Positions 1 to 1,229 of a DNA stretch of 64,000 nucleotides are shown one piece after another. Positions within the stretch are counted from its first letter, which is position 1, and each line of letters starts with the position of its first letter. Position numbers and translations under genes: made by a program. The notes under the pieces were generated by a model. That model saw only the letters and a program-made list of their open reading frames with translations. It did not search any database and was not told where the DNA came from. Source of the stretch: Escherichia phage 236Ecol005PP. The stretch lies in the sequence record PP434423.1; one strand, 5' to 3'.

Positions 1-146
1 TAAATAGCGTTCAATAGGAGCTGTTTTAGCGTCAAAGCCGTTTCCTATGCGGTCAACGCCGTTTCCTCGGTAAGTCCACTCATCTTTATTAATGCCTTTA
101 GCCTTTTCCACAGAAGCTTCAGCGATAAATTCTTTATACGTTTTCA
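1..146 (-). CDS. internal head protein (ip family), N-terminal 48 codons; CDS runs past window start
   Basis: ATG at 144-146; N-terminus MKTYKEFIAEA matches T-even capsid targeting sequence (CTS); early promoter upstream. Confidence 0.6.
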
Positions 147-175
147 TGTGTTTCCTTGTTTGTTTTGATAGAATA

Positions 176-205
176 ATTATATCATATTAATACTTAAGCG
201 TAAAC
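176..205 (-). promoter_or_regulatory. T4-type early promoter (-35 GTTTAC, -10 TATAAT)
   Basis: minus strand GTTTAC-N18-TATAAT just upstream of ip start at 146. Confidence 0.5.
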
Positions 206-468
206 TGTTTAAGCTTTACCGCCAGAAATAATTCCGAAGTTGTTAAAATCATATCCAATATCGTCACATCTACTTTAGGGCTTGCTACAACATAAGCAAT
301 TTCACTACGTTTTGCATAGGTGTTTATTTCTCTACCATCGCCGCCTAGGAAAGAATACCCATTACGTTTTAATGAGCCAAAATCTTCGGCATCACCAACG
401 AAAGCTTTAACTTTAAATTTGGGGCCTTTGGCATCTGCTTCAGCGATAAATTCTTGATACATTTTCAT
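187..468 (-). CDS. internal head protein (ip family), 93 aa
   Basis: ATG start with AAGGA RBS; N-terminus MKMYQEFIAEA = CTS consensus. Confidence 0.7.
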   Translation of the reverse strand: MKMYQEFIAEADAKGPKFKVKAFVGDAEDFGSLKRNGYSFLGGDGREINTYAKRSEIAYVVASPKVDVTILDMILTTSELFLAVKLKQFTLKY

Positions 469-474
469 TTTTCC

Positions 475-888
475 TTAGTAAATTGATTTACCATAGTATT
501 TGTACCAAGTAGGGCGTTGAGCAATTTTTTCATCTAAGCGAGCTTGACTTATCGCAATGGACGCTTCGGACGGGACATAATTATTACGAAATTCGACAGG
601 GATGTCGGAAATATCCTGGACAGTCGTGTCCTTGATTTTGAAACCACGTTTCAAACATTCAGCGATTAGCTCGATTTGACGTAAACGTAAAAATTCGAGT
701 TTGTCGTAAAAGAATGTTACGTGACCTGTGCCTAAGATAAATGTTGGAGAGATTTTAAAATCCTTTACACGTTTACCGTTTTGAACATGTTTACGGACTG
801 CACCAAATACGCGTGGTAATTCACGATACTCAGCCATAAGATGTTGGTCGGTCAATTCAGAAACAAGTGTTAAATTGATACGGGTCAT
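475..888 (-). CDS. denV: endonuclease V, pyrimidine-dimer DNA glycosylase/AP lyase
   Basis: [12 protein letters not shown]...[11 protein letters not shown]... matches T4 EndoV as recalled; ATG at 888 with GGAGG RBS (track start at 900 is TTG). Confidence 0.9.
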
Positions 889-891
889 AAT

Positions 892-939
892 TTCCTCCAA
901 GTAGTCGATGAATGTATAGTATCAAAACCCTTGGAGGAA
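892..939 (-). promoter_or_regulatory. inverted repeat TTCCTCCAA/TTGGAGGAA able to sequester the denV RBS in read-through RNA
   Basis: 9-bp perfect inverted repeat; downstream arm contains the GGAGG Shine-Dalgarno. Confidence 0.45.
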
Positions 940-945
940 GTAAAC
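916..945 (-). promoter_or_regulatory. T4-type early promoter for denV (-35 GTTTAC, -10 TACTAT)
   Basis: GTTTAC-N18-TACTAT on minus strand, located inside the inverted repeat. Confidence 0.5.
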
Positions 946-947
946 AA

Positions 948-1229
948 CTATTTTTCTGAAGCGCCTGAAATATATTTTTCAAGACGTTGTTTCATCAGCG
1001 AGCCGTTCTTAGCGATTTCTTCCGGTTTATCGCACATACGCAACAAGGCTTCAAGCTTAACGATATCACTGGTGCGCTCAAATTTGCGAGTATCTATCTT
1101 ACTAGCAAGTTCAGAAATACGTGCTAATAGACTTTCAGCTTCAACCAAAGCTGCACCTAGCTTAGTTGCAAATGTGTCAGTAGCTTCGTTAAGAATAGAT
1201 TCTGATAAAAATTCACTATATGTTTTCAT
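948..1229 (-). CDS. internal head protein (ip family), 93 aa
   Basis: in-frame ATG at 1229 gives [11 protein letters not shown] (CTS); ATGA overlap with lysozyme stop; track start at 1244 is TTG. Confidence 0.65.

Follow-up and report, generated by a model that had tools for sequence, protein, structure and literature searches.

Internal protein genes around denV in Escherichia phage 236Ecol005PP: a conserved Ip5-family paralogue, a probably inactive member of a family without a name and the start of an ipIII orthologue

What are the three small open reading frames (ORFs) that lie around denV at the left end of a 64,000-nt stretch of Escherichia phage 236Ecol005PP (record PP434423.1), and could their products act against the host? 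An earlier note on this stretch, called the window below, had described them as proteins with a capsid-targeting sequence (CTS) and as candidate injected effectors. Our analysis indicated that the three ORFs are very probably members of the polymorphic internal protein (Ip) gene set of a Tequatrovirus, located in the hypervariable Ip locus of the e/denV region. Judged by homology, ORF 948-1229 is an intact and strongly conserved paralogue of the Ip5 family, already catalogued, and ORF 1-147 is the start of an orthologue of T4 IPIII (Ip3). ORF 187-468, for which we use our own name ipY, is probably an inactive, recently broken copy of a CTS family that has no name. The coordinates of the latter ORF and of ORF 948-1229 had been given correctly, while the partial ORF ends at 147 and not at 146. 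No new kind of element is present here, and the interpretation offered in the note restates published knowledge. By megablast, the window belonged to Tequatrovirus and shared 95-98% DNA identity with many phages of E. coli, Shigella and Salmonella, being identical to none of them. Coordinates are collected in Table 1.

The N-termini carried the first part of the evidence. All three products were said to start with MKTY. The CTS was indeed found in three of the three, but the ipY product (starting MKMYQEFIAEADAKG) has M at residue 3 and begins MKMYQEFIAE, compared with MKTYKEFIAE in ORF 1-147 (starting MKTYKEFIAEASVEKAKGINKDEW). Residues Y4, F7, I/L8 and E10 were kept in all three, ORF 948-1229 included. 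In T4, mapping of IPIII by amber suppression assigned residues 4 and 7 to capsid targeting and residues 8 and 10 to processing (PMC9026906). The loose pattern MK[TM][YF]xEF[ILVM]xE gave 5 matches when the window was translated in all six frames, against none in 100 shuffles, so the motif is not a chance match. The two matches beyond the three ORFs were the two genes of the ipI locus. Thus there are five CTS genes in the window: IPIII-like, ipY (frameshifted), Ip5-like, Ip7-like and Ip9-like. Neither IPI nor IPII was found within the window; an ipII may lie beyond its left edge, as in phage G2133, where an ipII-like gene follows ipIII. Furthermore, the genes for gp21, gp22, gp68 and gp67 all lie at 36754-38869, and gp68 and gp67 had 99% and 98% identity to T4 (for gp21 and gp22 see Table 1). 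The protease and the core proteins are thus near-identical to those of T4, so that the CTS would be read by what is in essence the T4 machinery.

The position of the genes pointed in the same direction. Two variable Ip loci are distinguished, one in the e/denV/vs region and the other in the 57B/trna.4 region. All three ORFs were placed in the former, flanking denV, which is the locus of T4 ipII/ipIII, T2 ip4 and VR20 ip5/ip10/ip7. The genes at the left end are all on the minus strand and would be transcribed in the order nudE, e, Ip5-like, denV, ipY, ipIII, so that denV separates the ip genes; ipY starts 7 nt past the denV stop codon. Pfam and PHROG matches confirmed e and denV as the neighbours that had been named. 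The mature domains of the three ORFs had been called unrelated to one another, and this was borne out: no BLASTP match was obtained among them at E<=1, and profile comparison gave none either. The window proteins likewise had no BLASTP match at E<=1 to the mature domains of T4 IPI and IPII, and hhalign aligned the CTS only or nothing. Thus, in the alignment to T4 IPI, IPII and IPIII that the earlier note had recommended, ORF 1-147 came out as an IPIII orthologue, and the other two matched the T4 proteins at most in the CTS.

ORF 1-147 matched phrog_5341 'internal virion protein' (E 4e-21). A cut of the gp21 type can be drawn as MKTYKEFIAE|ASVEKAKGINKDEWTYRGNGVDRIGNGFDAKTAPIERYL. Its mature part had 77% identity to T4 IPIII (NP_049735) and 87% to the 198-aa IPIII of HMD-9. 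The CTS is the same as in T4 except for Q5K, the mature start ASV.KA.GINKDEWTYR...TAPIERYL is shared, and both proteins fall in the same PHROG family. The difference from T4 IPIII is a 6-residue insertion, GNGVDRIGNGFDAK versus SGNGFDPK. This homology was seen over the 49 residues that lie in the window; the T4 protein has 193 aa, and about 150 codons would lie beyond the window. The position also differs, since ipIII directly follows e in T4 and lies downstream of denV and ipY here. Upstream of the window gene, a consensus scan returned a promoter-like site with 10 of 12 consensus matches plus an extended -10 TG, its -35 hexamer falling within the 3' end of the ORF before it. The annotation of phage Lutter has a promoter here too. 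On the coding strand, positions 1-2400 contained no site resembling an intrinsic terminator.

The Ip5-like product matched phrog_3499 over its full length (E 1e-46). It occurred with 100% protein identity in 132 phage records, always beside e, and about 240 database records carry the allele at >=80% identity. Against the gene at the same position in VR20, a phage of Gaprivervirus, in which it is annotated "ip5, similar to T6 Ip5", the mature domain was 94% identical. In tblastn, the ip5 genes of T2, PP01, AR1 and RB9, which lie at the ipI locus, had about 47-51% identity over 90% of the query (E 1e-14 to 2e-17), and a profile of the family retrieved the UniRef 'Ip5' entries of T2 and RB70 (E 1e-38 to 1e-42). 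The whole mature domain of Ip5 of T2, T6 and RB70 (Repoila et al., 1994; UniRef 'Ip5 internal head protein') aligned with that of ORF 948-1229 with 33 invariant positions, and they have in common the CTS and, at residue 15, an (I/L)xE site. However, the window protein is 8-13 residues longer than Ip5 of T2 and RB70, due to an RKFERTS insertion and a longer C-terminus. The locus differs as well: T2 ip5 sits at the ipI locus directly after 57B, while the window copy sits at the other Ip locus and overlaps the stop of e. At its ipI locus the window has the Ip9-like and Ip7-like genes in place of Ip5, and the Ip5-like copy belongs to the e-adjacent subgroup together with VR20 'ip5'. The dN/dS of the gene was 0-0.14, including the comparison with a different genus, indicating purifying selection to the same degree as on denV. 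Candidate gp21 sites lay after residues 10 (LSE|S), 15 (LNE|A) and 30 (LVE|A). The first is absent in T2 Ip5; E15 is present in >=90% of the family, and L28, E30 and A31 are invariant.

Could the CTS-like N-termini be relics of recombination on proteins that are no longer packaged, for example an Ip5-like protein expressed together with lysozyme as a cytoplasmic protein? The start codon of the Ip5-like gene shares the sequence ATGA with the TGA stop of e, the two genes are probably translationally coupled, and the consensus scan gave the Ip5-like gene no promoter of its own. Furthermore, variation within the Ip5 family is greatest in the propeptide; FLSES of the window is replaced by FLTVT in VR20, in which E10 is thus lost. 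These observations would fit a relic. However, Y4 and F7 occur in nearly all members of the family, E15 within an (I/L)xE site is kept as described above, the first 10 residues of IPIII are enough for packaging in T4 (PMC9026906), and the core and protease genes of the window are those of T4 almost unchanged. We therefore regard unpackaged relics as very improbable, and the reading of the three ORFs as an Ip gene set was kept.

The second ORF led to a different outcome. The ipY product matched phrog_2667 'internal head protein' (E 7e-17) over residues 1-66 only, and it had 72-74% identity to VR20_119 and STML-198 gp183. With the phrog_2667 family (VR20_119, STML-198 gp183, SEA1_gp0121), which has neither an Ip number nor functional data, it shares the CTS and residues 11-66. 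The conserved C-terminal motif of the family, DF..FG....GK, is gone from the window copy through a frameshift, which the earlier note had overlooked. It was found by DNA alignment with IME340, HMD-9, G2133, SF7 and Lutter and by comparing the translation with VR20 and STML-198. The last 26 residues are an out-of-frame tail, TILDMILTTSELFLAVKLKQFTLKY, in place of the conserved 19-residue C-terminus VDDIGYDFNNFGIISGGKA; the ancestral gene would have had 86 aa, ending at TAA 209-211, and the ORF as read gives 93 aa. Intact ipY of IME340, HMD-9, VR20 and STML-198 ends with ...KVDVDDIGYDFNNFGIISGGKA or a recognisable variant, and this C-terminus is conserved out to Gelderlandvirus and in more distant CTS proteins that an exhaustive profile search returned. 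The window copy is probably inactive because the 1-nt deletion replaces the conserved C-terminal residues.

Is the deletion real? The ipY segment measured 332 nt in 48 of the 60 best megablast records versus 331 nt in the window, and most tblastn matches of ipY were split into two pieces. Codons 1-66 had a dN/dS of 0.06-0.12, which is purifying selection comparable to that on denV, and the lesion must therefore be either recent or a sequencing error. If it were an error of sequencing or assembly, the normal 86-aa protein would be made and all three Ip genes would be intact. The closest relatives of the segment (SP1, PaulHMueller and F25; 99.1% identity) carry the additional T, and their ORF is intact, which favours an error, as does the selection on codons 1-66, given that any inactivation would have to be very recent. 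On the other hand, the deletion falls in a TT dinucleotide and not in a long homopolymer, and independent indels were found in G2133 (-1), Pu-Krd-SF7 (+2) and Lutter (+1). The protein database also holds internally deleted (P0009, P0016) and frameshifted (P0015) forms, and about 12 of the 60 best records deviate from the modal length, suggesting that the gene is really often lost. An error thus appears unlikely, though it keeps appreciable weight. The gene itself seems, from these independent lesions, to have been lost repeatedly among relatives, and we prefer a recently broken copy in this genome.

The distant relatives of ipY (P0025-P0029) bear the CTS. The exhaustive search with the ipY-family profile returned only further CTS-bearing T4-like proteins and two repeat proteins, which were judged spurious, and gave no bacterial or functional lead. 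The string KGPKF in ipY was considered as a sign of homology to IPIII and rejected, since profile comparisons with T4 IPI, IPII and IPIII aligned the CTS only. One of the relatives, the 194-aa metagenomic CTS protein P0027, has an ipY-like domain joined to the C-terminal domain of a 132-aa CTS protein of HMD-9 (L001:1730-2128), the gene of which lies between ipY and ipIII. The two proteins share the stretch ...TGTA.I.QTRAAGGKMLD.KLNVK..., and from this join the Ip cargo domains appear to be shuffled and fused.

The gene order had been described as unlike that of T4, and this was correct: T4 has e-ipIII-ipII-denV-vs.8, whereas the window has e, Ip5-like, denV, ipY, ipIII. It is, however, a common arrangement, already annotated for example in VR20 (e-ip5-denV-ip10-hyp-ip7, with ip10, ipY and ip7 after denV) and, going by the Ip5-like allele, represented by the about 240 records mentioned above. 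In T2 (MH751506 59000-65000), e-ip4 is followed directly by vs.8 fragments and there is no denV, which is another state of the variable locus. Relatives have the part from e to ipY in common and then vary. After ipY, HMD-9 has the extra 132-aa CTS protein and IME340 an extra Ip10-like protein; G2133 has ipIII and then an ipII-like gene, and SF7 lacks ipIII and has only the ipII-like gene. Altogether, the Ip content of the e/denV locus differs among T4, T2, HMD-9, IME340, G2133, SF7, VR20 and STML-198. The cassette shuffling suspected earlier agrees with this variability across relatives, but it is not a new proposal. As summarised in PMC2839356, Repoila et al. (1994) described the two Ip loci as hypervariable and proposed conserved promoter-type elements as recombination substrates for Ip shuffling; more than 30 IP variants are known (cited in PMC2839356). 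In the window, an upstream element, TGATA(C/T)TATTA..ATCAAAAC..AGGAAA, is common to ipIII (~150-186) and to both genes of the ipI locus (~8077-8120 and ~8410-8455), all on the minus strand, and the first 33 coding bases were identical at 22-32 of 33 positions among the five ip genes. It is plausible that these shared stretches would serve as recombination substrates for the exchange of Ip cassettes.

What could the proteins do? The earlier note had stated that only IPI has an assigned role in T4. This is outdated: Ip2 and Ip3 each inhibit a distinct GmrSD (PMC12373910, PMC9391042). T4 Ip1, Ip2 and Ip3 each inhibit one type IV system of the GmrSD type (CT596, ECOR21/BrxU and the ECOR17 GmrS1/GmrSD2 pair, respectively) with no cross-protection, and all proteins of both Ip loci were proposed to target GmrSD variants (Silas et al., 2025, PMC12373910). 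IPIII is needed for T4 infection of ECOR17 and works without the CTS when expressed in the cell (PMC9391042). By analogy, the course of events would most probably be the established one: the CTS of about 10 residues would bring each protein into the scaffolding core of the prohead and gp21 would cut after an (L/I)xE motif, leaving in the head a mature protein of about 8-20 kDa for injection with the DNA. In the cell it would inhibit a modification-dependent nuclease stoichiometrically, which is suggested for IPIII by orthology and for the Ip5-like protein and intact ipY by analogy only. That these particular proteins are packaged, cleaved and injected is our inference from T4. With T4 IPI* (NMR structure; inhibitor of GmrSD-CT596) and T4 IPII (Ip2, inhibitor of GmrSD-ECOR21/BrxU), the window proteins would have this delivery route in common, and they are of the 8-10 kDa size class; the difference is that similarity is confined to the CTS by BLASTP and profile comparison. 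We consider it about an even chance that the Ip5-like protein, and the intact ipY of other phages, bind and block a modification-dependent (type IV) nuclease of some Enterobacteria or another of their first-line defences. The guess that such divergent cargos are injected anti-defence effectors was reasonable, though already in the literature (Rao and Black, 2010, PMC3012670; Silas et al., 2025).

Several points weigh against this account. When ip4-10 were tried against active GmrSD variants, no reproducible inhibition was obtained (PMC12373910, section 10, Supplementary Fig. 9; the ip5 allele used is unspecified there). In the literature searched, no evidence was found for the Ip5-like or ipY protein in virions or as a processed form. 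The AlphaFold model of the Ip5-like protein had three helices at moderate confidence (pLDDT 75.5, pTM 0.50), and Foldseek returned nothing from PDB at E<=0.001 and only its own family (VR26) from BFVD. An intact ipY homologue was modelled at low confidence (pLDDT 53.7), too poor for use. The structure and profile predictions suggested earlier thus gave a generic three-helix model, a low-confidence one and no functional lead. Searches of Pfam, NCBIfam and PDB sequences gave no useful match to the Ip5-like protein or ipY; for the IPIII fragment Pfam, the only one of the three searched with it, gave none either. Finally, ipIII is represented in the window by 49 codons only.

It is also conceivable that the main role of internal proteins lies in the virion, where they would neutralise the charge of the DNA or help packaging and ejection, and not in acting on host defences. 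T4 heads hold about 1000 internal-protein molecules embedded in the DNA, with lysines contacting DNA phosphates (PMC3012670), and as a class these proteins are lysine-rich. However, the net charge was 0 to +1 for the mature Ip5-like protein and 0 for repaired ipY, versus +5 and +10 for T4 IPII and IPIII, and this near-neutrality is therefore a weak argument against a pure counter-ion role. In addition, phages differ in their ip genes and can do without them, all Ips of known phenotype are anti-restriction factors, and IPIII acts from the cytoplasm without its CTS. A mainly structural role is thus improbable, and we continue with the reading as injected inhibitors.

If they are injected inhibitors, the Ip5-like and ipY-type proteins could have targets other than GmrSD, such as McrBC-like or other modification-dependent nucleases, or another early defence or host function. 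This is where the negative outcome for ip4-10 would find an explanation, and a CTS protein at the ipI locus of phage Bas37 was reported to inhibit McrBC rather than GmrSD (bioRxiv preprint 10.1101/2025.11.20.689424). The near-neutral charge also sets both proteins apart from the basic T4 IPII and IPIII. However, all three T4 Ips with known targets hit the GmrSD family, which is very diverse and of which only a sample was tested. We hold targets outside GmrSD to be rather doubtful. The Bas37 protein, Bas37_0260 (HIDEN-SEQ preprint), is comparable in that it shows non-T4 Ip cargos to inhibit type IV restriction as well; it differs in coming from the ipI and not the e/denV locus. Our own tentative proposal, to which we give somewhat less than an even chance, is that the Ip5-like protein is an injected inhibitor of a defence not yet tied to any Ip, either a GmrSD subtype outside the tested set or another modification-dependent or early-acting system. 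On this view, the independent lesions that recur in ipY would point to a target that has become rare among current hosts.

If this is true, a working pair of Ip5-like protein and target would be a new inhibitor-enzyme pair in the arms race between Ips and type IV restriction. Phage therapy makes wide use of T4-like phages, whose Ip genes are determinants of host range; each gene may disarm one particular modification-dependent nuclease. A record of the Ip alleles that a phage carries, and of those that are broken, helps to predict which wild strains of E. coli, Shigella and Salmonella can be infected. The targets of Ip5-type and ipY-type proteins are a question already recognised and being screened. 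For the window, the practical result is the inventory of five CTS genes, and the current picture is unchanged.

Table 1. Positions of the genes and sites of the window discussed in the text (similarity values from the searches named)
Feature	Position	Strand	Remarks
Third CTS ORF, 5' end of ipIII (Ip3) orthologue	1-147	-	phrog_5341; first 49 codons, cut at window edge
Promoter-like site upstream of ipIII	176-204	-	TTTACG, 17 nt spacer, TG-TATAAT; consensus match only
Second CTS ORF, ipY (our own name)	187-468	-	phrog_2667; 93 codons as read
1-nt deletion in ipY	265/266	-	T missing from GATGTTGAC (-> GATG-TGAC); frameshift after ipY codon 67
denV, endonuclease V (pyrimidine-dimer glycosylase)	475-888	-	Pfam PF03013, E 3e-14; phrog_1183, E 2e-62
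First CTS ORF, Ip5-like internal protein	948-1229	-	phrog_3499; 93 codons, intact
e, T4-type lysozyme	1226-1714	-	Pfam PF00959; upstream neighbour of Ip5-like gene
nudE	1752-2207 (ORF)	-	start codon not fixed
Ip7-like CTS protein, ipI locus	7768-8076	-	47% identity to VR20 Ip7, E 1e-22
Ip9-like CTS protein, ipI locus	8137-8409	-	directly after 57B; 78% identity to VR20 ip9, 100% to HMD-9
Gene 21, prohead protease (removes CTS)	37394-38029	+	tblastn with T4 gp21: 99.5% identity, 212/212 aa
Gene 22, scaffolding core protein, main prohead core component	38063-38869	+	tblastn with T4 gp22: 97.4% identity, 269/269 aa

Some further observations were made at the ipI locus. The Ip9-like and Ip7-like ORFs both start with MKTFKEFINEA and lie between 57B and trna.4. 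The ipI locus of Bas37 has two genes, one of them bas37_0260, and the window locus likewise has two (bioRxiv 10.1101/2025.11.20.689424). The mature domain of the Ip9-like protein (residues ~17-90) had tblastn matches of 30-49% identity in unrelated phages, namely Escherichia phages CR01 and M01 (genomes of ~45 kb) and ECP2304, Enterococcus phage Efm 3-10 and Salmonella phages SP-9-14 and SeKF_19. Because these matches begin past the CTS, the comparison suggests that in the Ip9-like gene the CTS may have been joined to a phage gene that already existed. An ORF of 184 aa (5211-5765, minus strand) lies beside the tRNA region, and at the corresponding position in PaulHMueller a putative homing endonuclease is annotated between tRNA genes. 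An ORF of 80 aa at 5955-6197, also on the minus strand, is probably a mere overlap with the tRNA genes.

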